NCBI GenBank assembly: GCA_964480345.1
Contig: CAYZNW010000001.1
Location: 1,348 to 65,347 of the forward strand
Source of the DNA: an uncultured Candidatus Saccharibacteria bacterium
Lineage (GTDB): Bacteria > Patescibacteriota > Dojkabacteria > SC72
Length of the DNA stretch: 64,000 bases
Direction of reading: 5' to 3'
A program made the translations under genes and the position numbers. The notes under the pieces were generated by a model, which saw only the letters and a list, made by a program, of their open reading frames with translations, had not been told where the DNA came from and made no database searches. Shown piece after piece: positions 19,848-35,124 of this stretch. Every line of letters starts with the position of its first letter. The stretch's first letter is position 1.

Positions 19848-22370
19848 TTAAAATATTGAAGAGAAATCTTTGAGAGGATCCTCTTTACTCGCTGTGTTTA
19901 CATCCAACTGTGATCTTGTTCGAATATCCTCATTAATAATATTAGTATCTCGACCATATTTCCTTCTAGAAATCTCCTTAACTATTCTAGCAACTTCAGC
20001 ATTGACAGGTAAATCAAATCCTGAGTCTGGGAATTTAGGTCCATACGATGCATCAAGAGAGAATGGTGAAGGATATGATCCGTTTACTAATAGCTTTGTA
20101 TAGTAATGCCCTATGCCTTGATTCACCATATCAGTAGCAGATACATATGATTCAAATGGTGTTTCTAAAAATTTAGCATCTTCAGGAGAACATCGTGCTA
20201 TAAACAAACTACCAACATTACCAAAAACTGCATTTTTGATATCCTCTGGTAACTGCCCTATATACTGATGTGCTAACGTTAAATTCAATCTGTACTTTCT
20301 AGCTTCAGAAAGTATGGAGTTAAATTCTTCAGTTGCAAAATTCTGGAATTCATCAGCATAGAAGAAGAAATCTCTTCTCTGATCCTCAGGGATATTTTCT
20401 CTACTCAATGCTGCTGCTAGCATCTTTTGCACAAGAAGAAGACCTAGGAACGACATATTTTCATCTCCAATAATACCTTTAGAAAGGTTAACTATTAGAA
20501 TCTTCCCTTCATCCATAATCTGTCTAAAATCAAAAGAAGAGGTTGATTGCCCTATGATATTTCGAATAGCTAGATTCGTTGTAAATTTATCAAATTTTGA
20601 TATGAAGTATGTCAATGATTCAGCTTTAGTTTTCTTATCTGTCTTGGCAACCTGATCTGTCCAATATCTGTGTACTAGCTCATCCTTCACTTGTGGTAAC
20701 CAGTAATTCATCACCCAATCTTCATCTTGTAAAATCCTAACCACCTCTATTAATGTGGAATCTGGTCGAGACATAGCTGTCAACATAGAGTTTCTAACTG
20801 CCTGTTGAAATGCTGGACCAGCATATCCTTGATTGTTTGGATCAAACAATCTAATTAATAAAGCAATGAAGCTATTAACAATTTGATGCTTATGCTGTTC
20901 ATTGTAATACTCCATGATATTCAAACCAAAAGGTCTCTCAAAATCTCCAGCATTGAAATATATAACTTTGTCAGCCTTCTCAGGAGGAATTCTCTCTAAA
21001 ATCATCTCGGCGGCAGAACCGTGTGGGTCAATAAAACAAACACCATCTCCATTATATATATCTTGAAGGATCATTCTAACCATTAACCAAGATTTACCTG
21101 TACCTGTCTGTCCTAAAATATATGCATGTCTTCTCCTATCATCTCTTTCAAAACATATCATTTTCTTCTTACCTCTAAAGTAGTTGTTCCCTACCCATAT
21201 CATATCTTTAGAGTTAACATCTGAACTAATGTCATTACTTGCTACTAACTCTTTTGACAGAAGCCATTTAATATTTGGAGTAGAAACATCTTTGTTTGGA
21301 AAATGATATAACCCTGCAAGCTCCTCTAAATTTAAAATACTTTTTTCATCTTCAGGAGTTCTTCTGTAAATCACATCATAGAGAAAAGATTGTGAATTTT
21401 TACTATCAATCTTTTTCTTCTTTAATTTATTAATACCTGGATTACTGTACTGATCATATGCACCAATAATATTATCCAGATGCATCTTCGCAATTTCTTT
21501 ATCTTTCGCACTAGTCACTATTCTAATTTCTGCAACTAAACCTGGTTTAGATATCTTATCTCGAATAGCTTGTAGCTTTTCTTGAGATACATTTATCTTT
21601 TTCTTCTCTGGATTAGAATTATTACTTTCAACTTTCTGTATGAATTGTGAACCATTTTTCTGCCATTGAGAATCTGATGGAGCTACAACAAGCTGAACCA
21701 TTGCTCCTTCATTTTCCGCCATCTTACTCAGTGTACTTAAAACATTGGCCATAGGATCTCCTGTGAAATCTTCTGCTTTCCTTATTGGATTGTAAGACTC
21801 TTCATCAAGAACGAGCCTAGCGTAAGCTAACTGATTCCCTTGTGCGAAGATATTGTATTCATCAACTATAGAAACATCTGCATCTTGATACGATCCTAGT
21901 ATTTGTTTCTCAACCAAATCAGCATATTTTCGTGGGCAATGGACAAAGAATCTAATCTCACCTGGTAATCCAACTATTTCGAAACTGACACAGTTACTTA
22001 CAGTAAAATTCTGGGCTATCCCCTCTGCTTTAGCACTGATACCGTACAGGTTAGCAAACATTTTTTCGGCAACACCGATTTCTACTTCATTGTTTCTAGG
22101 GACTCTTACCTCCATTAAAACTCCATCACTGGCTTTCTCATTTCGGTCTTTCTTTTTTAATTTTTTCTTAACAAAGAAAAAACCTAAAACTGCTATCAAA
22201 ACCAGCAGTAGTATAAAAGCTATCCAACCAAATGGAATATTTAGACTTTTAGAACCGTAGTAGTCATCATATGAATTATCGGAGTACTTTACATCAGCTC
22301 CTACTTTAATATTTGAATCCACAACAGGGATGGGACCCTGTATTTGTGCGAGAGTATATCCAGATTTCAT
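19848..22370 (-). CDS. Membrane-anchored FtsK/HerA/VirD4(TraG)-family P-loop ATPase (type IV secretion coupling-protein-like)
   Basis: N-terminal TM; Walker A ILGQTGTGKSWLM, downstream CFIDPHGS (DPxG) and FFFYADEFQNF Walker-B-like, typical of the TraG/VirD4/DUF87 family. Confidence 0.55.
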   Translation of the reverse strand: MKSGYTLAQIQGPIPVVDSNIKVGADVKYSDNSYDDYYGSKSLNIPFGWIAFILLLVLIAVLGFFFVKKKLKKKDRNEKASDGVLMEVRVPRNNEVEIGVAEKMFANLYGISAKAEGIAQNFTVSNCVSFEIVGLPGEIRFFVHCPRKYADLVEKQILGSYQDADVSIVDEYNIFAQGNQLAYARLVLDEESYNPIRKAEDFTGDPMANVLSTLSKMAENEGAMVQLVVAPSDSQWQKNGSQFIQKVESNNSNPEKKKINVSQEKLQAIRDKISKPGLVAEIRIVTSAKDKEIAKMHLDNIIGAYDQYSNPGINKLKKKKIDSKNSQSFLYDVIYRRTPEDEKSILNLEELAGLYHFPNKDVSTPNIKWLLSKELVASNDISSDVNSKDMIWVGNNYFRGKKKMICFERDDRRRHAYILGQTGTGKSWLMVRMILQDIYNGDGVCFIDPHGSAAEMILERIPPEKADKVIYFNAGDFERPFGLNIMEYYNEQHKHQIVNSFIALLIRLFDPNNQGYAGPAFQQAVRNSMLTAMSRPDSTLIEVVRILQDEDWVMNYWLPQVKDELVHRYWTDQVAKTDKKTKAESLTYFISKFDKFTTNLAIRNIIGQSTSSFDFRQIMDEGKILIVNLSKGIIGDENMSFLGLLLVQKMLAAALSRENIPEDQRRDFFFYADEFQNFATEEFNSILSEARKYRLNLTLAHQYIGQLPEDIKNAVFGNVGSLFIARCSPEDAKFLETPFESYVSATDMVNQGIGHYYTKLLVNGSYPSPFSLDASYGPKFPDSGFDLPVNAEVARIVKEISRRKYGRDTNIINEDIRTRSQLDVNTASKEDPLKDFSSIF

Positions 22371-22417: not shown

Positions 22418-22771
22418 TTAATCTATATCGATTGGAGCTCCGTTTATTTTTCTGTTCAATATTGCAACTGCGTCATCAGCAGTAACTTCTTGATTTTTTA
22501 CTCTGACAATATTTTCTTGAATTTGTAGAGGGAGTTGGTACCCTGCTCTGTTAGACTGCTCTGTGGTAGGTTCATTACTATCTTTTTTGCCTATAAAAAT
22601 ATCACCCTTACTTATTGTCTTCTCTTCTGTAGAAGGTGTAGAGGCTGGAGACTCTTGTTCTACTCCTGTTTTTTCAGAGTTTAGATACTCAGCAGGAATA
22701 GAAGGAAGGTTCATTTGTGCCTCTGTCTGAGTAGAGATATTTTCAGTTATAGAGTTATCAGGATTTGCCAT
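22418..22771 (-). CDS. Hypothetical protein (acidic, no TM)
   Basis: ORF only. Confidence 0.35.
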   Translation of the reverse strand: MANPDNSITENISTQTEAQMNLPSIPAEYLNSEKTGVEQESPASTPSTEEKTISKGDIFIGKKDSNEPTTEQSNRAGYQLPLQIQENIVRVKNQEVTADDAVAILNRKINGAPIDID

Positions 22772-22784
22772 AGATTACTACGAA

Positions 22785-23228
22785 TTATACCACAAACTTT
22801 CTACTTTCATAAAGCAATTCTTTGTTCATATCTCTTTCTTTTTCCCTATCTTTTTTCTCATGTCTTTTTCTTCCTCTACCCAAACCAACTTGTACTTTAA
22901 TAATGCCTCGTGTCTCATATATTGAGACAGGAAGAAGTACAAGTTTCTTCGATTTCATTTTACTTTCTACCTGTACAAGCTCTGATTTTTTGATAAGAAG
23001 TTTACGACTTCTTCTGGAATCATATTTATCACTTCCATCATATTTGTATTTAGGGATATCTGTATTTACTAGATACAGTTCACCATTAATAATTTTCACA
23101 AAGGAGTCTTCTAGATTTGCTCTACTATCTTTAATGGATTTAACTTCAGAACCAGTAAGCACTATACCTGCTTCAAAGCTCTCTACTATTTCATAATTGA
23201 AATTTGCCTTTTTGTTTGTAATTTTCAT
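22785..23228 (-). CDS. smpB: SsrA-binding protein SmpB
   Basis: KKANFNYEIVESFEAGIVLTGSEVKSIK...RKLLIKKSE canonical SmpB motifs. Confidence 0.9.
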   Translation of the reverse strand: MKITNKKANFNYEIVESFEAGIVLTGSEVKSIKDSRANLEDSFVKIINGELYLVNTDIPKYKYDGSDKYDSRRSRKLLIKKSELVQVESKMKSKKLVLLPVSIYETRGIIKVQVGLGRGRKRHEKKDREKERDMNKELLYESRKFVV

Positions 23229-23239
23229 TACTAATTATA

Positions 23240-25519
23240 CTACAAAGATACTCTCCAGATAATGGAATTTTCAACAATATATGCATTTTTCTCTGATAGA
23301 TCTACAACTATGTCTTTTACATTAGACCAACTCTCGTTATTTTCGCCTCGATACTGATACTGATTCAATAGAAGTAATTGATTTGGATGTCTAACTTCTG
23401 CTCCACCCTCCAAAGGTTTCTCAAATCTGAATAATCTTTTACCATTAGAATCAAACAAGAACAGCGAGCTTTTCATATCTTCTCCGTATGTATATCCACA
23501 TGATAGATTACCGTAATCTCCATCAAATCCTAGAGGTGTCAAAGGATTTTCTGCTTGTTTCTGTTGAACATAGTTCCAGCTGTATCGATATATCTGGGTT
23601 GGAGCAACAACATATACACTTAAATCTCCTAGGATATCTATTCCCTGTTTAAATCCTTCATTTTCAATATATGGGAAGAGCAAGCTATATCTATTACTAT
23701 ATACCGCAGATGATTTTAGAATTACTCCAGTATCTTTAGTTAGGAAGTAAGCATTATCCGCATCTGTAAGCATAATCAAACTACTAATATCCTTGTACTT
23801 AATGTCTCCCCTAGTTAAACCCGACATACTTATAATGCTTCCAAAAAGATTGGTTTCATCAAATGGAGCTTTTAGCAATCCAGATTTCTCATCATATATG
23901 TATACTCCCTCCACTCCCATTGAAACAAACTTTGGATCTTTTACTAAACCCTTGTCATCAGTCAATGTTTTAATAGTTTTATCTGAAAGATCAACAGTAT
24001 ATATAGCTTTTCTTCCTTTATCGGAGAGAAGAAGATACTCTTTGTTATTCTTAGCATGATATATATCTACATCTGTTAAATCAGCTCCCTCTCCAAAAGT
24101 TAATCTAGCTTGAATATATTCCTCTAAATTACTACTCTGAGTAGACACCCCTATTTTCTTAAACAAGTTATCGGATACATCTAAATATTTCTTTTTCAAA
24201 TCTTCAAATGTCTTCAAATCTTTATCGCTAAGATCATTTGGAACTTCTTTAATTAAATTCTCAGCTCTAAATATATTTGTTTCAGCGCTATCTCTATCAG
24301 TAACAGCCGTACTCTCAGCTTTCCCTATAAATTCCTCTATCTTAGTAAACTTCTCTCTTGCATCTTTTGCTACTGCCCTCTCATACTTAATCTTTTTTGT
24401 GAAATTTACACCAAAGATTGCTAAACCTATGATGAGTATTAGAAGAAAAATGATTTTAAACCTTTTGTTTCTTAATTCTTTTATTTTGTAATCATCTATA
24501 CGAATAGAATCAACAGGAGATCTAACCTTTTTTGTATTTAACTTTACTTCTGAGACTTGAGATCCTATTTTCTTAAACCATCTTTTATTTTTAATCTTTA
24601 GAAAAACTTTTTCTTTTAGTGCAACAAAGAGTTTTCTTACAAAACTAAACAACTTTTCAAACAAGCCTTTTATTGAAGAACCTATATCTGCGAATTTCTC
24701 TTTGATATTTTTGGGTAAAGGAATCTTTATTTTTTCAAATAATGTTGAAATTCTACCTTTTACATTACTTGGAAGTTGAACCTTATCGACAACATCTGAT
24801 TTGAATTTCTTTAGGAACGCAGGAGTATCTTTTTCTTTCTTTGGCTCTTTTACAACCTTCTCTACATTTTGCACTTTCTCTTCATCACCTACCGAAGTTA
24901 AACAGAGCAAACCGCCTCCATCAGGTAAAGATTTTCCAACTTGAGCTAATGCAGATTTGAAAGAATCTTTCTGTGAAAGGATAGAAACTTTAGCTATTAC
25001 AGGAGAAAGAACTTTTGATGTAGAAATAATTAAACTTTCTTTTTCATCTAATACAAGACCTGCTGTATTCGCTTTTTTCTTATCCATTATCTCTGTTATA
25101 TTTACACATTTATCTTTTTTGCAAAGGAATATCTCATCTTCGCCCATCTTTCCTACATACAATCCTTCTTTTCGGACAAGTACAACAGTAAAGCTCATAT
25201 CTATTCCTGTTTCTTCCAGATCTTTATCATGTTTGATGAGGCTTTTCATTTTCTCTAAACCTTGATTTAGAGATTCTTTAAGTGCTTCATTTGTTGTTTT
25301 AGAAATAGAGTATATGTAACCATCTACAATTGCTTCTATGACAAATTTGGATAGTCTAGCTAACGGGATTCGTTTATGAGAGGAGATTCTAAAGAGGATA
25401 TATATGTCAGAATCTTTTCCAGACTTATCTTTCCTGTTTTCAAAAAGACTTTTATATACAATAACAAAGGAGTTACTGTTTTTTCTGTTGAGAATATATT
25501 GTTGGGCAGAGATTTCCAT
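23240..25519 (-). CDS. Large bitopic hypothetical protein (759 aa, one central TM, beta-rich C-terminal ectodomain)
   Basis: TM IIFLLILIIGLAIFGV; no confident domain. Confidence 0.45.
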   Translation of the reverse strand: MEISAQQYILNRKNSNSFVIVYKSLFENRKDKSGKDSDIYILFRISSHKRIPLARLSKFVIEAIVDGYIYSISKTTNEALKESLNQGLEKMKSLIKHDKDLEETGIDMSFTVVLVRKEGLYVGKMGEDEIFLCKKDKCVNITEIMDKKKANTAGLVLDEKESLIISTSKVLSPVIAKVSILSQKDSFKSALAQVGKSLPDGGGLLCLTSVGDEEKVQNVEKVVKEPKKEKDTPAFLKKFKSDVVDKVQLPSNVKGRISTLFEKIKIPLPKNIKEKFADIGSSIKGLFEKLFSFVRKLFVALKEKVFLKIKNKRWFKKIGSQVSEVKLNTKKVRSPVDSIRIDDYKIKELRNKRFKIIFLLILIIGLAIFGVNFTKKIKYERAVAKDAREKFTKIEEFIGKAESTAVTDRDSAETNIFRAENLIKEVPNDLSDKDLKTFEDLKKKYLDVSDNLFKKIGVSTQSSNLEEYIQARLTFGEGADLTDVDIYHAKNNKEYLLLSDKGRKAIYTVDLSDKTIKTLTDDKGLVKDPKFVSMGVEGVYIYDEKSGLLKAPFDETNLFGSIISMSGLTRGDIKYKDISSLIMLTDADNAYFLTKDTGVILKSSAVYSNRYSLLFPYIENEGFKQGIDILGDLSVYVVAPTQIYRYSWNYVQQKQAENPLTPLGFDGDYGNLSCGYTYGEDMKSSLFLFDSNGKRLFRFEKPLEGGAEVRHPNQLLLLNQYQYRGENNESWSNVKDIVVDLSEKNAYIVENSIIWRVSL

Positions 25520-25520
25520 A

Positions 25521-25784
25521 TTAGCTTAATATTACAAACAAAAGAGAAATAAGAGAACCTATTATTGTTACAAAAAGATGAATTAATATTACTGTTTTAA
25601 CTATTCTGTTTTCAGGGGAAGAAAATGTGTCTGAAAGAATTCTGACTCGTAGATAGAGCATTAATGAAAAAAACATATTACCAAAGAGAAAGAGAAGTAC
25701 AGGTATTTTGAGTAGTCCAAAGAAATTGAAGTCCATTTGTGGAGAGTGAACTGCCAAGCTGTCTAATAGTTCATACGGATCCAT
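25521..25784 (-). CDS. Small integral membrane protein
   Basis: Two hydrophobic helices; abuts the bPH gene. Confidence 0.35.
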   Translation of the reverse strand: MDPYELLDSLAVHSPQMDFNFFGLLKIPVLLFLFGNMFFSLMLYLRVRILSDTFSSPENRIVKTVILIHLFVTIIGSLISLLFVILS

Positions 25785-26404
25785 TATATTTCTCCTTTCT
25801 GTTTAGACTCTAAGAGGTCGTAAAGTATATCTTGCACCTCTCTCGGTCTAGGGATATTATCAAATTCTATCTCTGCTTTTGCACCCGCAGTCTGTATATA
25901 CAAAGTCCCTATGTCAAAGACGCTGCTTAACAACCCTACCTGCTTATGAGTAACATCCTCTATTCTTTCTAACCTTGCTTCAGAGGAGGTATGTGATAGA
26001 GCTGATGTGAAATCTAAATCAATAACTCGTTGATCAGTAACAATATTTACATTGTAGAACCAACGTATATATGCATACACAAGTATAGAGAAGCAACTTA
26101 ATAGAGAGATAATCCACAGTGATATGAGTAGAGATGGGTTTTGAAATACTTGAGGAAGCACAACTGTCAGAATTACAGTAATTAAAAATATGAAAAGCAC
26201 GGTAAACAGGTAAGGAAGATACATCGCCCAATGGGTACGCACTATTAGAATAACATTCTCATCTTTCTCTTTCCCTGCAAACGAAAGACTTTTTGGAAAA
26301 GACATGAAGAATTGACCATTATCTTGCTGTAAATGGTCAAGAAAAGATTTATTTAGATTTCTAAATTTCTTTGGAATCCTGTTTGGAGCTTCTTTTATTG
26401 CCAT
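25784..26404 (-). CDS. Membrane protein with bacterial PH (bPH_2/YdbT-like) domain
   Basis: Two TM helices followed by IVTDQRVIDLDF...TLYIQTAG, typical of bPH_2. Confidence 0.5.
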   Translation of the reverse strand: MAIKEAPNRIPKKFRNLNKSFLDHLQQDNGQFFMSFPKSLSFAGKEKDENVILIVRTHWAMYLPYLFTVLFIFLITVILTVVLPQVFQNPSLLISLWIISLLSCFSILVYAYIRWFYNVNIVTDQRVIDLDFTSALSHTSSEARLERIEDVTHKQVGLLSSVFDIGTLYIQTAGAKAEIEFDNIPRPREVQDILYDLLESKQKGEI

Positions 26405-27107: not shown

Positions 27108-27138
27108 GAGCAGGTTCTTACCTGCTCTTTTTCTATTT
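27108..27138 (+). terminator. Intrinsic terminator after rubrerythrin
   Basis: GAGCAGGT-TCTT-ACCTGCTC hairpin followed by TTTTTCTATTT. Confidence 0.55.
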
Positions 27139-28965
27139 CTTCTCTACATTGAAGTATGCATAACCATTTTGTGGAATCCTCATATGTCCTGGAGCTATTT
27201 GGTTATATATATCTTTGAATCCTGCTCCAGAGATATTTACATACCCTTTATTTGTATTAAATACGACAGATGCGGTTCTACCTGGTTCTAACGCTGTAGA
27301 TGCAGAATATACATTGTGTACAGGAGAAACAAGGAAAGACTTTACTTCGTTAAGGGTATATGGAGTTTTATCAGTTCTACCGTAATCAAGACGCCCAGGA
27401 CATCTACCGTAATCACTTGGTAAAAGTCTCGATTTATCAGGAACTCCTTTTACACCTATTCCATTTTTAACAAAATATGAATTAATCATCATTGCCATTT
27501 CATCATGAGAAAGGAATGGAGAGTGTCCACATGATTCTCCTGATGAAGAGTATCCGTTTATATACCACGATTTATAAAACCATGTTACTCCTGATTTTCT
27601 CTCCCAAGAATCATTAAACCAGTCATTGCCATTACCACTCACAGTATCCCAACCGACTGTATTACCCCACCCTCCATGTACTGCAGCAAATTGTGTGGAA
27701 GTGGTAGTTCCATCTGAGTTTGTTAGGACCATACCTCTCGTAGCTCGAACTGCTTGCACCCAAGCTCCGCTCTTCAAAGGAAGGTTGAAAACTTGACATT
27801 TCTCAGTAGTACAAATTGATTTTCTTCCATTTTGCGTATAGTTAACAGCGTAAGTTCGTGCAGCAATTGCTTGAGCTTTTAAAACTTCCATAGGCCAACT
27901 TTCTGGGACCTCTTTTATGCCTAACAAATAGTAATCCTCCAAAGATAAAGAACCGTATCCATCTACTGAAATATTACCTGTAATATTCTCACCTACTCCA
28001 GCATAGGTTATCCTCCCATTTGCAATATTCTTCCCTGGATAGTAAGCATTTAGTATTTGAATATATGATTGGCCTGCTTCTGCCCTAGCTTTTGCTCCCC
28101 ACTGACTCATACCGTTCCTATGGGTGTAAGCTCCTATGGAGAAAATACCAAAAGAGTTGGCAGGAGCCTGAGATATAGCCGTACCATTCTCTGCTCCTGT
28201 ATAACCTCCTGTATATATCAAACCAGCACTTCTTGCAGCAATCAAGGCTGATTGCAATTGAGACATCTTAGCATTTAAATCTGTAATCTCAGCACTTAAA
28301 ACTTTTTTCTGAGAGTACTGCTCTCCTAAAGCTTTCTGAAGTTTACTCTTCTCTTCGGCCAATAACTTATATGAAGTATCCAAATCGCTTTTCTGCTTAT
28401 CTAAATCCTCTTTCTGCTTATTCAAATCAGCTTTAGCTTCTTCCAAACCAATAAACTCACCACTTATCTTCTCTACCTCTTCCTTCAGTATTGTAATAGC
28501 ATTTCGTTTTACAAAGAAATTTTCTACAATATTATTCCAATCAGCAAATGACAGAAAGAAATTTGCTGAATTATTTCTACTTTTCATATACAACTGACTT
28601 GATACTTCATCTAACAGTTCTTTCTTCTTTAACAGATCTTGCTGCTTTTTAGCTATTTCATCAATTTTCCCTTGTAGTTCAGCATCTTTCTCATCAATAC
28701 TAGCTTGAATTTTCGCAATCTCTTCGTTTATGAGGTTAATTTTTTGAGTAACTGAGTAATTACTGCTACTTATCTCTTTGATTTTACTTTCTACAGTTGC
28801 AAGTACTCCTTTCTTACCATCTATCTGGCTACTTTTCTCTGAGATTTGTTTCTCCAAATCAGAGATTTCATTAGAATATACAGGTATATTTAGCAGTGAT
28901 CCTCCATATATTAAAAGGAAGAGAATAGTTACTATTTTTTTTAGAAACTTCGGCAGTTTACTCAT
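27133..28965 (-). CDS. Secreted coiled-coil protein with C-terminal SpoIID/LytB peptidoglycan-remodelling domain
   Basis: Signal peptide; long coiled coil; YTHRNGMSQWGAKARAEAGQSYIQILNAYYPG matches the SpoIID GHGxGxSQxGA...YY motif. Confidence 0.7.
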   Translation of the reverse strand: MSKLPKFLKKIVTILFLLIYGGSLLNIPVYSNEISDLEKQISEKSSQIDGKKGVLATVESKIKEISSSNYSVTQKINLINEEIAKIQASIDEKDAELQGKIDEIAKKQQDLLKKKELLDEVSSQLYMKSRNNSANFFLSFADWNNIVENFFVKRNAITILKEEVEKISGEFIGLEEAKADLNKQKEDLDKQKSDLDTSYKLLAEEKSKLQKALGEQYSQKKVLSAEITDLNAKMSQLQSALIAARSAGLIYTGGYTGAENGTAISQAPANSFGIFSIGAYTHRNGMSQWGAKARAEAGQSYIQILNAYYPGKNIANGRITYAGVGENITGNISVDGYGSLSLEDYYLLGIKEVPESWPMEVLKAQAIAARTYAVNYTQNGRKSICTTEKCQVFNLPLKSGAWVQAVRATRGMVLTNSDGTTTSTQFAAVHGGWGNTVGWDTVSGNGNDWFNDSWERKSGVTWFYKSWYINGYSSSGESCGHSPFLSHDEMAMMINSYFVKNGIGVKGVPDKSRLLPSDYGRCPGRLDYGRTDKTPYTLNEVKSFLVSPVHNVYSASTALEPGRTASVVFNTNKGYVNISGAGFKDIYNQIAPGHMRIPQNGYAYFNVEKK

Positions 28966-29011
28966 ATTAATAGTATAGCAAAAATCAAAAGAAAGTTTTT
29001 TGAATCAAAAA

Positions 29012-29731
29012 CTAATCTATCATCCTAATTATGGCAGAGAGTATTGATGCTGAGAGGATTACAAATACTAAACCTATGATAGCCCATGTTAGAGTTCCTT
29101 GTGCTTTTTTGATTTTTTCGGGATCTCCTGAAGATGTTAGCCACATATACCCTCCCATTACAATAAATAAGACAGAGAGTAATCCAGCAAGAGGAAAGAT
29201 ATATCTAAATATTCTTTCAATCATTTGAAACATCTTTTTTATTCTAGGAGGGTCTTCTTCTCCTCCTACTACACTTGTATTAGAACTTTTTGTAGTATTT
29301 GTAGTAGAAGTTGTATTAGTAGTACTAGTACTGCTACTATTACTTTCTTCATACAAACATGTATCACCACCTGTACAAGACTCTATTTTTTTATTTAAAT
29401 TATTTAGATTCTCATTGAAAGCAATCATATCTTTTGAATTAATAATTTCATCTATCAAACTTCTAATAGATTCATTTTGAGTATAAAGTTCATTTGCCTT
29501 TATTGAGCTAATAACGTCCTCCCAACCTTTATAGAAATTTACACCTTTCTCTCCGTCTGTTTGTTCTATCTCTAAGTAACGTTTGTATGCTGTTAAATCT
29601 GAATACAGTTCGTTATATAGCTCCTCACTTCTATTGGCAGAAAGGACAGTATCAACATTTAAGAAAGAGTAAGAAAAAACAAGTAGAAAAAATACTCCGA
29701 TAGTAGAAATCACAAAAGTAAAATTTTTCAT
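29012..29731 (-). CDS. Pilin-like paralogue A: N-terminal secreted domain + Thr/Ser-rich linker + C-terminal two-helix VirB2/TrbC-like module
   Basis: C-terminal IFPLAGLLSVLFIVMGGYMWLTSSGDPEKIKKAQGTLTWAIIGLVFVILSASILSAII, near-identical to paralogue B. Confidence 0.5.
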   Translation of the reverse strand: MKNFTFVISTIGVFFLLVFSYSFLNVDTVLSANRSEELYNELYSDLTAYKRYLEIEQTDGEKGVNFYKGWEDVISSIKANELYTQNESIRSLIDEIINSKDMIAFNENLNNLNKKIESCTGGDTCLYEESNSSSTSTTNTTSTTNTTKSSNTSVVGGEEDPPRIKKMFQMIERIFRYIFPLAGLLSVLFIVMGGYMWLTSSGDPEKIKKAQGTLTWAIIGLVFVILSASILSAIIRMID

Positions 29732-29746
29732 AGTACTTTAATAAAA

Positions 29747-30139
29747 TTACTTCACTACACTTAGTACTATTTTACTGATATATGGTAAAAATACAATTAC
29801 TCCTGTAATCACAGAAACGAGTACGCTAACAAGAACAGCTCCTGCACTCACATCTTTTGCATATTTAATATTTACTTTGTAGTCGTGAGAGACAGTATCA
29901 CACAAAGCTTCAATAGCACTATTTATTGCTTCAGATATTAGAACCATAGATATTACTAAACTGATAGATATCCATTCAAAGTGTGATATTCGCAGTATGA
30001 ATCCTAATACTACAACTACAATAGCAGCAGCTAAATCTATTCTAAAATTTCTTTCATTTTTGAATATCAATTTGATACCGTTTCTAGCATATCCTTGACT
30101 CTTGAAGAAATTTTCAGCTTGATAGTTACTGTTTTTCAT
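29747..30139 (-). CDS. dgkA: Diacylglycerol kinase / undecaprenol kinase family (DgkA)
   Basis: Three TM helices; DLAAA...SEAINSAIEALCD matches the prokaryotic DAGK signature. Confidence 0.75.
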   Translation of the reverse strand: MKNSNYQAENFFKSQGYARNGIKLIFKNERNFRIDLAAAIVVVVLGFILRISHFEWISISLVISMVLISEAINSAIEALCDTVSHDYKVNIKYAKDVSAGAVLVSVLVSVITGVIVFLPYISKIVLSVVK

Positions 30140-30462
30140 TAATCAAATATCTTTATAATGGCAGATAAGATAGAGGCAGAAAGTATTACAAATACTAAAC
30201 CTATTACTGCCCAAGTTAATGTCCCTTGAGCTTGTTTAATCTTTGAAGGATCACCTGATGATGTCATCCACATATATCCTCCTTGGATAATGAAGACAAC
30301 GCATAGCAAGCCTGCAATAGGTAGTATCTTTGAAAATATGTTTTCAAACATAGAGAAAAGCTCACCTATTTTCTTTGGTTGCTCTTGTGCAAATAACGCA
30401 GAGGGAGTTATGAATAGGTTGAGGAATAGTATTAAGAGTGTAGAAGAAATCGTAGCTATCAT
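30139..30462 (-). CDS. Pilin-like paralogue B (signal peptide + two C-terminal hydrophobic helices; VirB2/TrbC-like)
   Basis: ILPIAGLLCVVFIIQGGYMWMTSSGDPSKIKQAQGTLTWAVIGLVFVILSASILSAII. Confidence 0.5.
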   Translation of the reverse strand: MIATISSTLLILFLNLFITPSALFAQEQPKKIGELFSMFENIFSKILPIAGLLCVVFIIQGGYMWMTSSGDPSKIKQAQGTLTWAVIGLVFVILSASILSAIIKIFD

Positions 30463-30741
30463 TTACTTACTTTGTAAAATTTGTTTAATAATAAATTGTA
30501 TTACGGTAGGAGATAGAAAAACAAGTACAAGCCCTAGTAATGCAAATAGAAGGGATCTGGAAGCCTCTGATATCTTCTTTTCATCACCTCTAGACAGTAT
30601 GAATTTGAATCCTGATAAGACAATGGCAACAACTGCAATAAATACAGAAAACGACATTGCAAAGTTTACTAAGAAATATACAAATCCCTGCAAGTCTCCA
30701 TACCCAGCACGAGCTAACCCGTCCAAATTAACTAATGACAT
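30463..30741 (-). CDS. Pilin-like paralogue C
   Basis: Same architecture: ...VLSGFKFILSRGDEKKISEASRSLLFALLGLVLVFLSPTVIQFII. Confidence 0.45.
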   Translation of the reverse strand: MSLVNLDGLARAGYGDLQGFVYFLVNFAMSFSVFIAVVAIVLSGFKFILSRGDEKKISEASRSLLFALLGLVLVFLSPTVIQFIIKQILQSK

Positions 30742-30758
30742 ATTTAATACTAGTTATC

Positions 30759-31124
30759 TTAGTTTGCCTTAATAAGACTGTTCAGAACAAACTGAACCAA
30801 GATTACTGCAATGAAACAGATTATTAATCCAACGATTGCCCAAGTTAATGTACTGGTAGCTTTCTGAATCTTTGATTCGTCTCCTGCTGCAGTAATATAG
30901 GAATATCCTGCAAAGATTAAGATAACGACACAAACGAAAGCTGCTAATGCAATTCCATAATTAAGAATATCTTTTAAGAAACCCATCAAGTCTTTACCAC
31001 CACCACCTGATGTAACACCACCAATCAAATCGTTTGCTGTAGGAGTCTGCGCATATGTTGCAGAAGCAAGATATAAAGATGAGCCTGCGACTGAAAGTGA
31101 TGCCAGTGCTTTAGAAATTTTCAT
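30759..31124 (-). CDS. Pilin-like paralogue D
   Basis: Signal peptide; ...IFAGYSYITAAGDESKIQKATSTLTWAIVGLIICFIAVILVQFVL. Confidence 0.5.
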   Translation of the reverse strand: MKISKALASLSVAGSSLYLASATYAQTPTANDLIGGVTSGGGGKDLMGFLKDILNYGIALAAFVCVVILIFAGYSYITAAGDESKIQKATSTLTWAIVGLIICFIAVILVQFVLNSLIKAN

Positions 31125-31196
31125 AGTTATATAAGATTTATAATGTTATTTATTTTAAATACCTGATTATATATAAATCAAGCCATAGTTGCAATA

Positions 31197-31484
31197 CTAC
31201 CCCACTCTTTCCAAAACAAATAAAACAATAACTTTTGCCATAAAAACAATAATCATTCCGACTACTGCTGCAGTAAGAGTCTTCTGCCCTTTTGATATCT
31301 GATCAGAATTTCCTGCCGCTGTTATTAACAAATAACCGGCTACCACAAACATAATTACAGCTACTAATGCAGAGAAGTTAATAATTGTATTAATAAGAGG
31401 AATACCCTTACCCTCTATTACTCCCTCAAAATCATCTCCTAAATTTATTAGCCCTCTTGTAAAGAATTGCGATATATCAACCAT
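31197..31484 (-). CDS. Pilin-like paralogue E
   Basis: ...VVAGYLLITAAGNSDQISKGQKTLTAAVVGMIIVFMAKVIVLFVL. Confidence 0.45.
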   Translation of the reverse strand: MVDISQFFTRGLINLGDDFEGVIEGKGIPLINTIINFSALVAVIMFVVAGYLLITAAGNSDQISKGQKTLTAAVVGMIIVFMAKVIVLFVLERVG

Positions 31485-31485
31485 A

Positions 31486-31839
31486 TTAATTATATATTCC
31501 TAAATCTAAACTATTACTAATTATAAGTAATATTGCTACACTAAGCAAAATTACTAGTAACCCAATAATTGCATTAGTTATAATACCCCTAGCCTCTTGA
31601 AGCTTATCAGGATTACCCTTACTAGCCATGAGCATATACCCACCGTATGCAAGCAATAATACTGCACTTGCTACTCCTAAAGGAACAGCAATATCTATGA
31701 TTTTCCCAACGAGCTCCTCTTTATTGCTACCAACATCACCTTCCAATGCACCAACTTTTTCATTTAAAGTTTCACTTAAACTCCCAGCATATACTTTATT
31801 CACAAAGAAACTGTTTAGTTTTTCAATAAAATCTATCAT
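31486..31839 (-). CDS. Pilin-like paralogue F
   Basis: ...LLAYGGYMLMASKGNPDKLQEARGIITNAIIGLLVILLSVAILLII. Confidence 0.45.
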   Translation of the reverse strand: MIDFIEKLNSFFVNKVYAGSLSETLNEKVGALEGDVGSNKEELVGKIIDIAVPLGVASAVLLLAYGGYMLMASKGNPDKLQEARGIITNAIIGLLVILLSVAILLIISNSLDLGIYN

Positions 31840-31860
31840 AATTCGAATTATACAATATAC

Positions 31861-34800
31861 TTATACTTCTGCATACTCACATATAGAATTGTAATCACAA
31901 TGCCTACAATTCCACATATTTGGCAACGGATTAAACTGACCACTCTCTATCAAATCGATACTCTCTAAAACCTGTTCCTTAGCTTTCTCTCTTTTTGCTT
32001 CAGAAATATCAACATTCACAACTTTACATGTTTCAATGAAAATATACTTCGCACTAACCACTTTTAACCCAAGTTTCTGTTCAACCAAAAGAGCATAGAG
32101 TGGAAGCTGTAAATCTTTTTTAATATCAGCATCTTTCTTCTCATTACCTGTTTTGTAATCTACGATACAAACCTGCTTTACTCCACTCTCCTCTCCTACA
32201 ATATCAATTCTATCGATTTGCCCTGTAAACAGAGTATTCCCGATGTTTGTATTCACAGATTCCTCTAGTTTAAAAGGTCTTTCATCAGAAGAGTAAACTT
32301 TCTCATAATACTGCTTCATCAACTCCACACCCTCCTTTTTTCTTAGCTCCTCCTGTTTTTTTGATTCATATCCACTACTAACCCAATTCTTCTCATACAA
32401 AGATAGTAAATCCTCTAAAGTTGGAGCTTCAAAAATTCCATCTAAACCCTCTTGCGAATTTAGAAGTATTTTGTAAAAGTCTTTCAATGTATTATGAATT
32501 GTATTTCCAAAAGATGTAGCTGAGTGTGCTTTCTGTGGTATTTTTAAAAGATATGAATACTCGTACCTTCTAGGACATTTCTCATAAGTGGTGTGCTGAG
32601 AGTAACTAAACCTCTTAACTAAATTCTTAACTTCCTCTTTTGGGATGATCGATTCATAACTATCTTTTGGTAGAAACTTCAAATCAGCAATACCTTTACT
32701 TTCCTCGCTATCAACAATATCAAAATCATCTTCTACTCCTCTACTAAGAATTTCAGAAAGAAAGACACTTGGTTTCTTCTTCCTTTTTGCATCACCGTAG
32801 AAATTCGCAGCTGTTAAAAACAACTTTTCTTTAGCTCGTGTAGCACCGACATAAAACAATCTTCGTTCTTCTTCTAAACTTTCTTCACTTTCATTACGCT
32901 CTTTATCAAAAACCTCCTTGACTAACTCATCTGGCATAGGAATAGAATCTTTTCTACCTTGTGCAGGGAATCTTTGACTTACAAGATTGACCATAAAGAC
33001 AATTGGAAATTCCAAACCTTTAGAACCGTGTACCGTCATAATATTGACGGCGTTCAAATCTTCCATATCAATCTGATCAACTAGAGGAGATTCTCCTGTT
33101 TCTATGGAATAGTTAAGATAATCTACATACTCATAGATATTTGAATCTGGATTATCTTTTTCATATTTTTTAATAAGCTCAAAATATTTATTTATATTTG
33201 AAATTGCAAAAAGATGCTCTGGTGTTTCCTCTTCAAGGTAGCTTTGAAGGAAACCGCTATTCATAATAAATTCATAAAGGATCTCTACAATTCCTTTATG
33301 CTCCTTTACTTTAATAATGCTAGAATTGAGAATTTCTAAGAGAGTGGATACTCCTGCAACAGCTTCGTCAGACAGAATTTTAAGAACAATACTATCCTCC
33401 TTCACATTTTTAACATCTATATTACTTTCCTCTCCTAGCTTAATACTCCACAACTGCTCTAACTGTTCAAACATACTTTGCCTCTTCTCTCTAGCTAAAG
33501 TGTTTAATTCAATATACTCTCTGGAAGTTAACTTCCATATTGGCAAAGAGAGTAACTTGTACATAGAAGCATCATCTGTATAGGCAACTAATACTCTCAA
33601 GAAACAGATAAGCTCTTTTATCTCATCTCTAAAATAGAGACCTCTCGCCCCGCCAAGCTTGTAAGGAACTCCTTTGTATCGTAAAGATTGGATAAAAATA
33701 TCAGCATGATTGTTGGCTCTAACAAGAATAGCTATGTCAGAGAATTTGTACTTCCCTTTTGCAATTTCATCAATACCTAACAGATTTGACTGTCCTTTCT
33801 CATCAAATACCTCACCTTTATGCAAAGAATCCTCTACAAGATCACCATGTCCTGTAAGTCTTAATATCTCATTTGTAACTAATTCCGCTTCAGATTCCTC
33901 ACTCTTTGAAACCATCAAATTCACACTATCCTGATCATCATCAAAAGCTCCTTTCGCTACCAATCGTTTATCTATACCCTCGGTAACCTCCAACCTATTC
34001 GGATTATTATGTTTAATTAATGCATAGGCTGAATCCAAAATCTCCTGCTTAGATCTGTAATTCTCCGTCAGAACTACCTCTTTAGCATCAGGATATGTTT
34101 CTTTAAATTGCAAAATATTTGATATGGCGGCTCCTCTAAACTTGTAGATAGACTGATCATCATCTCCTACTACAGTTAAATTTGGTCGGCTCGTTTCAAT
34201 ATCTTTGATATCACTACCAAGAACTAAAGTGTTAATGAGAACATTTTGAGTGTAGTTACTATCCTGAAACTCATCTACAAGTATATATTTGAATTTCTTC
34301 CTGTACTTTTCTAAAACATTTTTCCTCTCTCTGAATAGTTTTAGGGCCAAAATTATCAAGTCTCCGAAATCCAACTTAGAATCATTTAGTTTAATATCTG
34401 AATATTTTTTGTACGTCTCGGCTAACTCTTTCCATTTAACATACTCCTGCTTCTCAAGTTCGTTACTTTGTGGAAGTTTAGAAACATACTCCAAGTAATC
34501 TTCAGGTGCGACATCTTCATCTTGCAATTTCGACACATGACTTAAGAAGCTATTCAAAAAATCTTTTGGGGATCCCTTAGGTAAAAGGGTTTTCAGAGGT
34601 AAGTCATAGAGATGTTTTCGCAACAAGATATACGATTGGGCTTTATTCATCAGAGAGAAACGCCCATCAATACCAATATTGTAACCATCTTCTCGTAAAA
34701 CAGCATCACAGAAAGAGTGAAATGTTGATATGAACGGTTGCTCATAACCGTACTGCATTTCATCAACCACCCTATCTTCCATCTCTTGAGCAGCTTTCTC

Positions 34801-34977
34801 TGTGAAAGTTAAAGCTAAAATCTCTGATGGCTTTGCCCATCCTTTTTCAATAATATGAAGAATTCGCTTGGTAATAACCTGCGTTTTTCCAGTACCTGCT
34901 CCAGCAATGATTAATAGATCCCCATCATTAAACTCTACAGCTTCCTTCTGTTTCTCATTTAGGTTGAATTGTCCCAT
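31861..34977 (-). CDS. UvrD/PcrA/AddA-like SF1 helicase fused to C-terminal RecB-family (Cas4-like, Cys-cluster) nuclease
   Basis: Walker A IIAGAGTGKTQVITKRI, UvrD motifs (TFTEKAAQEM, LVDEFQD, MTVHGSKGLEF); C-terminal DxxxVDYKTG and CRHCDYNSIC. Confidence 0.8.
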   Translation of the reverse strand: MGQFNLNEKQKEAVEFNDGDLLIIAGAGTGKTQVITKRILHIIEKGWAKPSEILALTFTEKAAQEMEDRVVDEMQYGYEQPFISTFHSFCDAVLREDGYNIGIDGRFSLMNKAQSYILLRKHLYDLPLKTLLPKGSPKDFLNSFLSHVSKLQDEDVAPEDYLEYVSKLPQSNELEKQEYVKWKELAETYKKYSDIKLNDSKLDFGDLIILALKLFRERKNVLEKYRKKFKYILVDEFQDSNYTQNVLINTLVLGSDIKDIETSRPNLTVVGDDDQSIYKFRGAAISNILQFKETYPDAKEVVLTENYRSKQEILDSAYALIKHNNPNRLEVTEGIDKRLVAKGAFDDDQDSVNLMVSKSEESEAELVTNEILRLTGHGDLVEDSLHKGEVFDEKGQSNLLGIDEIAKGKYKFSDIAILVRANNHADIFIQSLRYKGVPYKLGGARGLYFRDEIKELICFLRVLVAYTDDASMYKLLSLPIWKLTSREYIELNTLAREKRQSMFEQLEQLWSIKLGEESNIDVKNVKEDSIVLKILSDEAVAGVSTLLEILNSSIIKVKEHKGIVEILYEFIMNSGFLQSYLEEETPEHLFAISNINKYFELIKKYEKDNPDSNIYEYVDYLNYSIETGESPLVDQIDMEDLNAVNIMTVHGSKGLEFPIVFMVNLVSQRFPAQGRKDSIPMPDELVKEVFDKERNESEESLEEERRLFYVGATRAKEKLFLTAANFYGDAKRKKKPSVFLSEILSRGVEDDFDIVDSEESKGIADLKFLPKDSYESIIPKEEVKNLVKRFSYSQHTTYEKCPRRYEYSYLLKIPQKAHSATSFGNTIHNTLKDFYKILLNSQEGLDGIFEAPTLEDLLSLYEKNWVSSGYESKKQEELRKKEGVELMKQYYEKVYSSDERPFKLEESVNTNIGNTLFTGQIDRIDIVGEESGVKQVCIVDYKTGNEKKDADIKKDLQLPLYALLVEQKLGLKVVSAKYIFIETCKVVNVDISEAKREKAKEQVLESIDLIESGQFNPLPNMWNCRHCDYNSICEYAEV

Positions 34978-35124
34978 TATCTAAATAGCAGTATTAAATA
35001 CAAAATCACTCCAACAAGTATTCCAAGAATTAGAAGTAAAAGAACTTTGGTGTTTGGACAGTATTTAATAAATTTTTGTATGAAAGATCGTATTTCTCTT
35101 TTCATAAATGATTTTAGTAAAATA

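Follow-up and report, generated by a model that had tools for sequence, protein, structure and literature searches.

Gene organisation of the locus

Nine co-oriented genes lie on the minus strand between positions 27133 and 34977 of the window, the whole 64-kb stretch of DNA that was analysed (Table 1). They comprise six small pilin-like genes (pilA to pilF), a dgkA gene embedded among them, a SpoIID-like gene at one end and a helicase-nuclease gene at the other. All ORFs and their spacing were reproduced, in agreement with the original prediction of nine minus-strand genes with gaps of -1 to 72 nt. Read from the SpoIID-like gene to the helicase-nuclease gene, the gaps are 46, 15, -1, 0, 17, 72, 1 and 21 nt.

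Table 1. Genes and features of the pilin-like locus, with positions in the window.
Feature	Position	Strand	Description
VirD4/T4CP-like ATPase	19848-22370	minus	840 aa
SpoIID-like gene	27133-28965	minus	610 aa
pilA	29012-29731	minus	239 aa
dgkA	29747-30139	minus	130 aa
pilB	30139-30462	minus	107 aa, group B
pilC	30463-30741	minus	92 aa, group C
pilD	30759-31124	minus	121 aa, group D
pilE-pilD spacer	31125-31196	minus	72 nt; sigma-70-like site inside
pilE	31197-31484	minus	95 aa, group E
pilF	31486-31839	minus	117 aa, group F
Helicase-nuclease	31861-34977	minus	1038 aa

The median gap in the array is 16 nt, against 47 nt for co-oriented genes elsewhere in the window. Left of oriC, 42 of the 49 genes are on the minus strand (86% of the replichore). 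Given this strand bias and the short gaps elsewhere, the co-orientation and tight spacing are partly a genome-wide property. No convincing terminator was found between the helicase gene and the hairpin that follows the SpoIID-like gene. A sigma-70-like site (TTGCAA-17-TATAAT, 31194-31166) lies in the pilE-pilD gap; it is a consensus match only (10/12), in a region where the total of such sites is not above shuffled expectation, and may possibly be an internal promoter. The term "operon-like" is qualified by the genome-wide share of spacing and co-orientation and by this site.

The array is chromosomal, about 20 kb from dnaA/oriC and amid housekeeping genes, and its six pilin-like genes are free of mobile-element features. 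The host, an ultra-small bacterium, belongs to Candidatus Dojkabacteria (WS6, Patescibacteria), as the relatives are all from Dojkabacteria, which agrees with the CPR-like host suggested before.

Family assignment of the six small proteins

All six proteins pass the gathering threshold of PF18895 (T4SS_pilin; 26.6 bits, whole-protein score), with 47.3 bits for pilA, 47.5 for pilB, 32.2 for pilC, 42.0 for pilD, 30.1 for pilE and 32.7 for pilF. The match in pilA spans residues 168-234. The TrbC/VirB2 family PF04956 (threshold 27.9 bits) is missed by all: pilB, the paralogue nearest to TrbC/VirB2, comes close with 26.4 bits (E 8e-6), the other paralogues reach 17-21 bits and pilF has no score. 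The VirB2/TrbC-like assignment of the original prediction is therefore upheld through PF18895, with TrbC/VirB2 itself close but below threshold. For NF045849, pilD scores 44.8 bits against a cut-off of 40, and the others 17-36 bits.

Orthologues carry precomputed PF18895 annotations, several pilD orthologues also have a precomputed PF04956 match, and the names given at NCBI are "Mbov_0395 family pilin-like conjugal transfer protein", "TrbC/VirB2 family protein" and "pilin". The exact pilD protein is present in NCBI and in Logan (P0001), and the automatic gene call on the Logan contig overlooked pilB and pilC.

As for solved pilins, the profile search of the pilin-like proteins gave no PDB match. 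With hhalign, VirB2 was aligned at E 0.021 and a probability of 2%, in register and helix to helix. A fold search with the two-helix hairpin was not discriminating.

Two other identities were considered and rejected. For a holin or phage membrane protein, no PHROG annotated as holin or lysis was matched, and the genes are in a chromosomal housekeeping context near oriC. Three weak PHROG matches were obtained for pilA and pilF (E about 0.005), all to PHROGs of unknown function. None of the six proteins was assigned by profile to a holin or phage family; such an assignment had been named beforehand as evidence against pilins. For a type IV pilin, the prepilin motif G|F/M-x-x-x-E is absent from all six N-termini, as had been claimed from a first reading, and the proteins have two helices rather than one.

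Architecture, leaders and topology

In an alignment of the six proteins, the common core is a pair of hydrophobic helices joined by a short G(D/N)xxK loop, and the residues V, G, G, A and G are invariant. The motif (A/G)GY is found in five of the six, pilC having SGF instead. The loop starts with GD in pilA to pilD and with GN in pilE and pilF, and reads GNPDK in pilF. Of the shared motif described originally, the two helices and the short loop stand, while (A/G)GY and GD hold only loosely. An AF2 model of pilD is a helical hairpin with helices at residues 46-78 and 83-120 (pLDDT 72.7).

The N-termini, judged by inspection and hydropathy, are diverse. Typical Sec signal peptides are seen in pilB (…ALFA|QE) and in pilD (…ATYA|QT), where the helical hairpin follows. 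In pilF the N-terminus is an atypical, short, conserved leader-like segment ending in VYA|G/Q (VYA|G in the window). The pilA protein has a signal or anchor, an acidic, helical, S/T-rich N-domain of 140 aa and the PF18895 hairpin at its C-terminus. Both pilC and pilE are without signal peptide, the former with a short acidic N-tail and the latter with an acidic N-tail of 25 aa. A leader or N-domain, first ascribed to all six, is thus not uniform, with only short acidic tails in pilC and pilE.

Among relatives, extracellular-type domains are fused at either end of the hairpin, and Cys-rich N-domains are found on the pilins of loci L007 and L010. The wider PF18895-type family is very large: at E<=1e-3 it counts 84,650 cluster representatives. 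Its top members carry 2-17 hairpins in tandem within a single ORF, which gives another hint at the packing of the units. Proteins of 650-4100 aa with Big_5, TIG or PKD domains, encoded far from VirB4, also bear the hairpin, at either their N- or their C-terminus. These multi-hairpin ORFs and giant surface proteins suit the role of a membrane anchor or ring no less than that of a free polymerising pilin.

Conservation of pilin positions across Dojkabacteria

In about 30 Dojkabacteria loci, each pilin position has an orthologous group of its own (F, E, D, C and B), and the five groups are recovered as monophyletic clades in the tree; pilE falls in a clade of its own and pilB in the B clade. Between genomes, proteins at the same position are 54-63% identical, against 24-39% for different positions, and paralogues of different groups within the window are 23-36% identical. 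The positional orthologues of pilF (42-75% identical) are present in all Dojkabacteria loci, and those of pilC are 46-85% identical. Signal-peptide status differs consistently between the groups.

The sixth gene has a different history. The pilA and pilB proteins share 61-67% identity, pilA is nested in the B clade, and among the Dojkabacteria loci compared it was found only in the window and in locus L001, with N-domains that are 44% identical. The pilA gene arose by recent duplication of pilB and gained an N-terminal domain. B-type pilins carry variable N-domains, and extra D copies occur in loci L010, L035 and L041. The pilin set of the locus consists of members of five ancient, individually conserved groups plus a recent B-type duplicate. 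As far as we could find, the positional orthology of the five groups has not been reported before.

Genes adjoining the array

In the SpoIID-like protein, a signal or anchor at the N-terminus is combined with a coiled coil of about 220 aa and a catalytic region. Both PF08486 and TIGR02669 are above their cut-offs and the fold is SpoIID-like, in line with the SpoIID-type identity first proposed. The motif KEV…LKAQAIAARTY is conserved and presumably holds the catalytic Glu. In every Dojkabacteria locus the gene follows immediately downstream of the pilins. Of about 15 loci from outside Dojkabacteria, only one has a SpoIID-domain gene within 10 kb of its pilin array; in L049, from an unrelated lineage, a SpoIID-domain protein and an amidase are found 6-8 kb from a pilin-VirB6-VirB4 cluster. 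Neither an SLT nor a CHAP domain was found in the protein, and there is no virB4 in the vicinity, so it does not qualify as a VirB1-type hydrolase. It is possible that this enzyme stands in for VirB1; equally, its coiled-coil and hydrolase build would fit a division hydrolase of the PcsB/CwlO type, a resemblance that comes from a weak profile match and JGI names. No FtsEX partner was seen in the window.

The dgkA product is a lipid kinase of the DgkA family (PF01219 at 114.5 bits) and aligns over its full length with E. coli DgkA (2kdc/3ze4). Both SEAINSAIEALCD and AKD are conserved. The conserved E/N/E/D and KD positions are, we assume, catalytic or active-site positions. The kinase would act on diacylglycerol or undecaprenol. 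The helicase-nuclease combines a UvrD/PcrA-type SF1 helicase with a PD-(D/E)XK/Cas4-like nuclease (PF00580, PF13361, PF12705; TIGR00372 cas4 at 69 bits). Upstream of the array, it adjoins nfo (endonuclease IV), and it probably acts in DNA repair.

The gene dgkA is missing in five Dojkabacteria loci (L005, L032, L037, L040 and L046), and in L046 the helicase-nuclease is missing between nfo and pilF as well. Neither was found beside the pilin arrays of about 15 non-Dojkabacteria loci searched. Because of these losses and absences, both genes are better seen as neighbours than as parts of the apparatus, contrary to the original prediction; dgkA, embedded as it is, is probably not a component. The whole block from nfo to the T4CP gene, smpB included, is collinear throughout Dojkabacteria, so adjacency within it says little.

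Type IV secretion context

The VirD4/TraG-like ATPase noted earlier at some distance from the array is confirmed by PF02534 (32.5 bits, cut-off 20.1), with PF10412 at 22.9 bits (cut-off 20.5) and a match to PF01935. The protein has a transmembrane helix at residues 40-72, a DUF8128 domain and a P-loop domain, and carries Walker A and B motifs (GQTGTGKS and DEFQ). It matches NF045973 (CD1115 VirD4-like) at E 3e-11, under the cut-off, as is the case for all NCBIfam equivalog models. The gene is kept in the same block across Dojkabacteria, with 72-81% identity.

No homologue of VirB4, VirB6 or PrgI was present among the ORFs scanned in the window, as had been noted for the first two, and none was found in the Dojkabacteria loci within stretches of about 10 kb either side of the array. 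Coupling to a T4SS in the host organism is for this reason only inferred. Homologous arrays of 7 pilins in other lineages of the Patescibacteria have TrbL/VirB6, PrgI and VirB4-like ATPases on their flanks. Among the entries of Table S1 of PMC12102498, two Dojkabacteria genomes are VirB4-positive, and the same study places a pilin near virB4 in only 1135 of 1948 assemblies. The suggestion of a T4SS-type apparatus gains from the VirB6/PrgI/VirB4 clusters in which such arrays are found elsewhere; as a discovery it is not new, such arrays having already been published.

Proposed role and alternative explanations

We consider it fairly probable that this is the form taken in Dojkabacteria by the Patescibacterial VirB2-like pilin array, and that it feeds a VirB4/VirB6/PrgI machine for a host-contact structure. 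The hairpins would be inserted in the cytoplasmic membrane so that both termini face outwards and the loop with its lysine faces the cytoplasm, a topology in keeping with the extracellular-type domains fused to either end in relatives. The pilB, pilD, pilA and probably pilF products would insert after signal-peptidase cleavage, and those of pilC and pilE uncleaved, keeping their acidic N-tails. A monoderm (MPF-FATA-like) VirB4/VirB6/PrgI machine encoded elsewhere in the genome would take up the pilins and build them into a pilus-like or conduit structure where the host cell is contacted, as is proposed for Saccharibacteria, in which the pilin array is essential. The SpoIID-like lytic transglycosylase might open the wall for the apparatus; it might just as well serve wall remodelling or division in general. 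The two neighbours are probably co-transcribed and would serve housekeeping ends of their own, dgkA in lipid-carrier or phospholipid recycling and the helicase-nuclease in DNA repair. Because each of the five groups keeps its own position across Dojkabacteria, every paralogue most likely plays a structural part that the others cannot fill (as major, minor or decorated subunit), rather than being one of several interchangeable antigenic variants.

To our knowledge, no filament has ever been shown for the PF18895 family. The hairpins could instead be membrane modules, with the small paralogues side by side in a fixed hetero-oligomeric ring or platform in the cytoplasmic membrane, the same hairpin as a two-helix anchor of large surface proteins, and "pilin" reflecting only a distant resemblance. 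The size of the family and its poly-hairpin top members speak for this, as do the hairpins fused to the ends of Big_5/TIG/PKD giants far from any VirB4, the absence of significant similarity to solved pilins, and a fixed set of five conserved paralogues, which suits a defined stoichiometric complex. Yet the arrays of other lineages adjoin VirB6, PrgI and VirB4 (also PMC12102498), and the TrbC/VirB2 profile almost reaches its threshold. Before they assemble, VirB2 pilins too are membrane hairpins, which makes the two readings compatible; the membrane-module explanation is doubtful, with a real but minor chance of being right. A related and unlikely idea is that the five paralogues are obligate partners of fixed stoichiometry, with the PF18895 hairpin as a general Patescibacterial building block and, in Dojkabacteria, a locus detached from virB4 that has a dedicated SpoIID-type wall opener. 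Here each layer of a T4SS-type tube resting on a pentameric VirB6 platform could consist of five subunits, one of each kind, or the five could form a hetero-oligomeric membrane ring. The hairpin would then come as separate genes, as "poly-pilin" chains in which as many as 17 units are covalently joined, or as an anchor that fixes giant adhesins in the membrane or filament.

Variation in the array invites another explanation, a cassette of interchangeable pilins for host range or evasion, as proposed for the VirB2 paralogues of Bartonella and Anaplasma and suggested for Patescibacteria in PMC12102498. Low identity between paralogues (23-36%), lineage-specific duplications (pilA in the window and L001, D in three loci) and the variable N-domains of B-type pilins would agree with it. 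However, the five groups keep their positions at 54-63% identity and form their own clades over about 30 Dojkabacteria loci, which marks them as old, separately constrained genes and not a fast-turnover cassette, and they differ consistently in the presence of a signal peptide. We regard this explanation as very unlikely. There is, lastly, only a slim chance that all nine genes are one operon for DNA uptake or conjugation, in which the helicase-nuclease would handle DNA, dgkA would provide the lipid of a protein-lipid pilus and the SpoIID-like enzyme would be the VirB1 equivalent. Tight spacing without a convincing internal terminator, the SpoIID-like gene right after the array in all Dojkabacteria loci, the similar neighbourhood in L049, and the make-up of conjugative pili, which are polymers of protein and phospholipid (Costa et al. 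2016, as cited in PMC12857230), can be adduced in its favour. They are outweighed by the loss of the helicase in L046 and of dgkA in five loci, by arrays in about 15 non-Dojkabacteria loci that have neither gene alongside, by a conserved block that also holds nfo and smpB and so reflects general collinearity, and by the 86% of replichore genes on the same strand. Furthermore, the helicase adjoins endonuclease IV, a repair context, and the SpoIID-like build resembles division hydrolases of the PcsB/CwlO type.

The locus bears on the role of Patescibacterial T4SS and pilin arrays and does not by itself answer the question of function. The phylum is a large share of bacterial diversity, and its T4SS is essential in the sole species tested. 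Three constraints follow from the comparison: the Dojkabacteria paralogues are a fixed, anciently diverged five and not a variable cassette; the pilin array is separable from virB4, virB6 and prgI; and dgkA and the helicase are dispensable neighbours, with the SpoIID-like enzyme always adjacent in Dojkabacteria. The enzyme may be linked to the pilins.

Comparison with known systems

In Patescibacteria, 441 VirB2-like arrays of 2-11 genes each have been described, with T4SS genes close to dnaA (Quinonero-Coronel et al. 2025, PMC12102498), and the T4SS locus of Southlakia epibionticum ML1 has an essential six-pilin series (Wang et al. 2023, PMC10633639; PMC12857230). With pilin arrays in the phylum already described in 2023-2025, our finding is sound but not new. 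If an array is taken as at least two tandem or once-interrupted divergent PF18895/PF04956 genes in Patescibacteria, the locus is one with six genes, the same number as in Southlakia epibionticum. It resembles the arrays of PMC12102498 in its tandem PF18895/PF04956 genes, low paralogue identity, Patescibacteria host, chromosomal site near dnaA and single interrupting non-pilin gene (here dgkA). Unlike them, it is outside a virB4 cluster, with no VirB4, VirB6 or PrgI within 64 kb, and pilA and pilB (61-67%) exceed the published identity maximum of 54%. The text of that study does not deal with the class Dojkabacteria.

The SpoIID-like enzyme shares PF08486, TIGR02669 and the putative catalytic-Glu motif with SpoIID/LytB (C. 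difficile SpoIID, PDB 5i1t). It differs in that the host organism is non-sporulating and in that GMSQWGA, C-terminal in 5i1t, here precedes the catalytic-Glu segment. With PcsB and CwlO it has in common a long N-terminal coiled coil before the hydrolase.

The likeness to TrbC/VirB2 pilins (PF04956; A. tumefaciens VirB2, PDB 8cue/8exh) includes a length of about 100 aa, a signal peptide in some, two hydrophobic helices, a short loop with a basic residue and the in-register hhalign alignment. In contrast to these Gram-negative pilins, the proteins score below threshold and have no significant match to solved pilins, two groups are leaderless, and the host is monoderm. Finally, Mbov_0395/MMCAP2_0565 of Mycoplasma ICEs (NF045849, whose cut-off pilD passes) is likewise a small membrane protein with two helices that belongs to a monoderm T4SS, encoded there by a single gene in a mobile element beside VirB4 and here by six chromosomal genes.

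Family assignment of the small proteins

The array of nine co-oriented genes described from the sequence is confirmed (table), with intergenic gaps, from the SpoIID-like gene to the helicase-nuclease, of 46, 15, -1, 0, 17, 72, 1 and 21 nt. All six small proteins (pilA to pilF) pass the Pfam model PF18895 "T4SS_pilin", scoring 30-47 bits (threshold 26.6), as the original prediction had expected of profile searches. They also come near the TrbC/VirB2 model PF04956, remaining below its threshold (26.4 vs 27.9 for pilB), and pilD in addition exceeds the cut-off of NCBIfam NF045849, "Mbov_0395 family pilin-like conjugal transfer protein". The original interpretation was correct on family and organism type alike.

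A holin or phage origin, named beforehand as the finding that would count against pilins, did not emerge. No PHROG annotated as holin or lysis was matched, the small proteins giving three weak matches to families of unknown function, and the surroundings are housekeeping genes. Type IV pilins were likewise rejected, given the two-helix architecture and the absence of the prepilin motif from all six.

Automatic gene calls on identical Logan contigs place a 160-aa ORF on the opposite strand (30290-30772, +), miss pilB and pilC (30139-30741, -) and leave pilA with no Pfam match. The 160-aa ORF is ruled out in favour of pilB and pilC, which are conserved and match PF18895. Per-array pilin counts obtained by automation can therefore run too low.

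Features of the window and of related loci (L numbers are loci in other genomes or metagenomes)
Feature	Location	Strand	Remarks
XerC/D-type tyrosine recombinase	13479-14366	+
1765-aa surface protein	14363-19660	-	DUF2341, fn3, Ig-like, CarboxypepD_reg domains
VirD4-like ATPase	19848-22370	-
117-aa acidic protein	22418-22771	-
smpB	22785-23228	-
759-aa protein	23240-25519	-	one central TM helix; no Pfam match; faint PP2C-like N-part
87-aa DUF5657 protein	25521-25784	-
bPH_2 membrane protein	25784-26404	-
SpoIID-like gene	27133-28965	-	strong domain matches
pilA	29012-29731	-	PF18895
dgkA	29747-30139	-	strong domain matches
pilB	30139-30462	-	PF18895
pilC	30463-30741	-	PF18895
pilD	30759-31124	-	PF18895; NF045849
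pilE	31197-31484	-	PF18895
pilF	31486-31839	-	PF18895
UvrD/PD-(D/E)XK helicase-nuclease	31861-34977	-	strong domain matches
42-aa ORF	34977-35105	-	unannotated; one hydrophobic helix
ThyX (Thy1) ORF 1	41557-41934	+
ThyX (Thy1) ORF 2	41953-42762	+
tmRNA	43680-44089	-	Rfam, 104.6 bits
Poly-pilin P0241	L019 9925-12387		820 aa, 8 units
Poly-pilin P0245			1775 aa, 15-17 units
Giant pilin fusion	L021 4428-16602
Giant pilin fusion	L023 3345-15291
Giant pilin fusion	L024 8317-14275
SBP_bac_8-like gene	L049 6972-8324
SBP_bac_8-like gene	L054 7917-9272
SBP_bac_8-like gene	L068 5732-7036
SBP_bac_8-like gene	L085 2281-3702
SBP_bac_8-like gene	L098 8682-10013

Pilin architecture

What the six pilins have in common is a hairpin, in which a short G(D/N)xx(K/Q)(I/L) loop links two hydrophobic helices; five columns of the alignment are invariant. 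The AlphaFold model of pilD (pLDDT 72.7) has helices at residues 46-78 and 83-120. The N-termini differ among the groups and are conserved inside each group. Classic Sec signal peptides are present in pilB (...LFA|QE) and pilD (...TYA|QT), and pilF has a short conserved N-terminal segment ending in VYA|G/Q. As for pilC and pilE, these carry short acidic tails and no signal peptide. The pilA protein begins with a signal or anchor, behind which comes a 140-aa domain that is acidic and S/T-rich.

Comparisons with known structures returned no pilin. A PDB profile search with 45 pilins found only helix-loop motifs of de novo designed proteins. The pilD model, compared with PDB entries by Foldseek, gave generic helical hairpins at a best E of 0.9, which is uninformative. 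The hhalign alignment of the pilin profile to a verified VirB2 sequence is in register and not significant.

Host and genomic position

Among species-representative genomes the nearest loci all belong to Candidatus Dojkabacteria (WS6), a lineage of Patescibacteria/CPR, and exact copies of the pilD and SpoIID-like proteins occur in NCBI and Logan. The window contains dnaN, dnaA, rnpA and yidC and is chromosomal. Taken with the dnaA region, a change of sign in GC skew near 50-53 kb places the array about 20 kb from the origin.

On the array's side of the origin the minus strand carries 42 of 49 genes, and a shared orientation by itself says little in favour of an operon. Gaps between co-oriented genes have a median of 16 nt in the array vs 47 nt elsewhere in the window. 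The spacer between pilE and pilD contains a sigma-70-like site, and a hairpin 3' of the SpoIID-like gene is shared with the convergent rubrerythrin gene.

Several further features were observed in the window. Two adjacent ORFs match different parts of the ThyX profile (16-95 and 133-190), as if thyX were split or interrupted. The gene of the 1765-aa surface protein follows closely on the VirD4-like gene and a tRNA-Ile, and is adjoined on the opposite strand by the XerC/D-type recombinase. The window also encodes the tmRNA and, about 20 kb away, its partner smpB.

Conservation of the array in Dojkabacteria

We compared thirteen genome loci and about sixteen metagenome loci of Dojkabacteria. Their common order is nfo, a 42-aa membrane ORF, helicase-nuclease, pilF, pilE, pilD, pilC, pilB and dgkA, followed by the SpoIID-like gene, bPH protein, DUF5657, 759-aa membrane protein, smpB, 117-aa protein and VirD4-like ATPase. 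In a tree built from every pilin copy, five clades match gene position exactly, giving five orthologous groups. Identity between genomes is 54-63% at the same position and 24-39% at different positions. The paralogues are thus old and separately constrained, which argues against a simple variation cassette, a possibility raised in the literature.

Some variations of this set were found. Only the window and L001, its closest relative, have pilA, which nests in the B clade and is 61-67% identical to pilB. Extra D-type copies are present in L010, L035 and L041, and the B-position pilin of L007 and L010 has a Cys-rich N-domain of about 250-300 aa.

The proposal of a single nine-gene apparatus was an overreach. 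The non-pilin genes of the array do not all behave alike. dgkA encodes a complete DgkA homologue, with the residues that we take to be its active site, and is absent from five Dojkabacteria loci (L005, L032, L037, L040 and L046) and from the vicinity of every non-Dojkabacteria array examined. The helicase-nuclease is missing from L046. Its gene neighbours that of endonuclease IV, and a role in repair is the simplest reading. The SpoIID-like gene is directly downstream in every Dojkabacteria locus compared. A search for its relatives, aimed at testing the linkage through distant homologues, found none among the matches listed, at least 120 and all of them Dojkabacteria orthologues. Outside Dojkabacteria, a SpoIID-domain gene was found near one array only (L049), with an amidase, on the opposite strand and 6-8 kb away. 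Since the collinear block also holds nfo and smpB, adjacency in Dojkabacteria cannot by itself show shared function.

The 42-aa ORF (MKREIRSFIQKFIKYCPNTKVLLLLILGILVGVILYLILLFR) has a stop that overlaps the helicase start (TAATG), and occupies the same position in L001, L002, L004, L008, L011 and L013. The genes of the 117-aa, 759-aa, DUF5657 and bPH_2 proteins, located between the VirD4-like ATPase and the SpoIID-like gene, are kept in every Dojkabacteria locus; smpB is part of the block collinear with the array.

Arrays in other lineages

At E<=1e-3, 84,650 cluster representatives match a profile of the six paralogues. Arrays in metagenome loci from lineages other than Dojkabacteria comprise 4-7 pilins. 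The L049 array leads into genes for two TrbL/VirB6 homologues, one PrgI protein and a VirB4-like ATPase (PF19044/AAA_10); L058 carries the same set, and the VirB4-like protein also lies beside pilins in six further loci. The published tie of these pilins to monoderm-type T4SS is reproduced here independently. No homologue of these VirB6, PrgI and VirB4-like components was found in the window or the Dojkabacteria loci, and VirB4, VirB6 and PrgI models gave no match among the ORFs scanned across the window.

Directly upstream of non-Dojkabacteria arrays, and co-oriented with them, is a gene for an SBP_bac_8-like (solute-binding-type) protein of about 450 aa, often preceded by a nucleotidyl transferase.

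Many relatives in the PF18895 family are single ORFs with 2-17 tandem two-helix units separated by linkers of 30-60 aa, here called poly-pilins. They include the protein P0248 and most of the best 150 relatives. In L019, two further pilin genes and a gene for a PKD-repeat protein come after the 8-unit protein, and VirB4 is absent within 10 kb of it. We found no mention of poly-pilin fusions in PMC12102498.

The hairpin is also present in surface proteins of 650-4100 aa (P0391-P0397) with Big_5, TIG, PKD or Laminin_G domains, either at the N-terminus (residues ~50-130) or at the C-terminus. These giant fusions have a conserved neighbourhood of signal peptidase I, HisRS and pilin-fusion, and suggest a further role of the hairpin in anchoring or polymerising giant adhesins.

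Discussion

We propose that both termini of the hairpin would face outside with the loop in the cytoplasm, as indicated by the loop lysines and by the extracellular-type domains fused to either hairpin end in relatives. The B, D, A and perhaps F pilins may be cut by signal peptidase, and a VirB4/VirB6 machine encoded elsewhere would build from the subunits a pilus-like or conduit structure for epibiotic contact. The five groups would have distinct roles, with pilA as a putative decorated B-type subunit. Taken as a whole, we regard this reading as reasonably probable. Its main rival holds that the hairpins form membrane-embedded oligomers or anchors and no filament, in agreement with the many single ORFs of 2-17 tandem hairpins (such as P0241 and P0245) and the giant surface proteins that bear one hairpin. 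We consider it rather unlikely. To the biology of pilin arrays, an active question, the window brings constraints and not an answer.

The pilus or conduit reading can be set beside published arrays. Using PF18895 and PF04956 on 3,035 genomes of Patescibacteria, Quinonero-Coronel et al. (2025) reported 441 arrays. These have 2-11 pilin genes, either tandem or with one non-pilin gene between, and their members are ~25% identical to each other (PMC12102498). T4SS genes are often near dnaA, with T4CP homologues mostly far from virB4 (PMC12102498), and two Dojkabacteria genomes are VirB4-positive in the part of Table S1 available to us (PMC12102498). In S. epibionticum, the pilin series of the T4SS locus is essential (Wang et al. 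2023, PMC10633639). According to a 2025 review, that array comprises six VirB2-like pilins, conserved in structure and divergent in sequence, speculated to form a pilus-like conduit for the uptake of host molecules (PMC12857230). This kind of array is already known, and the window adds an example from a class not discussed in the text of PMC12102498.
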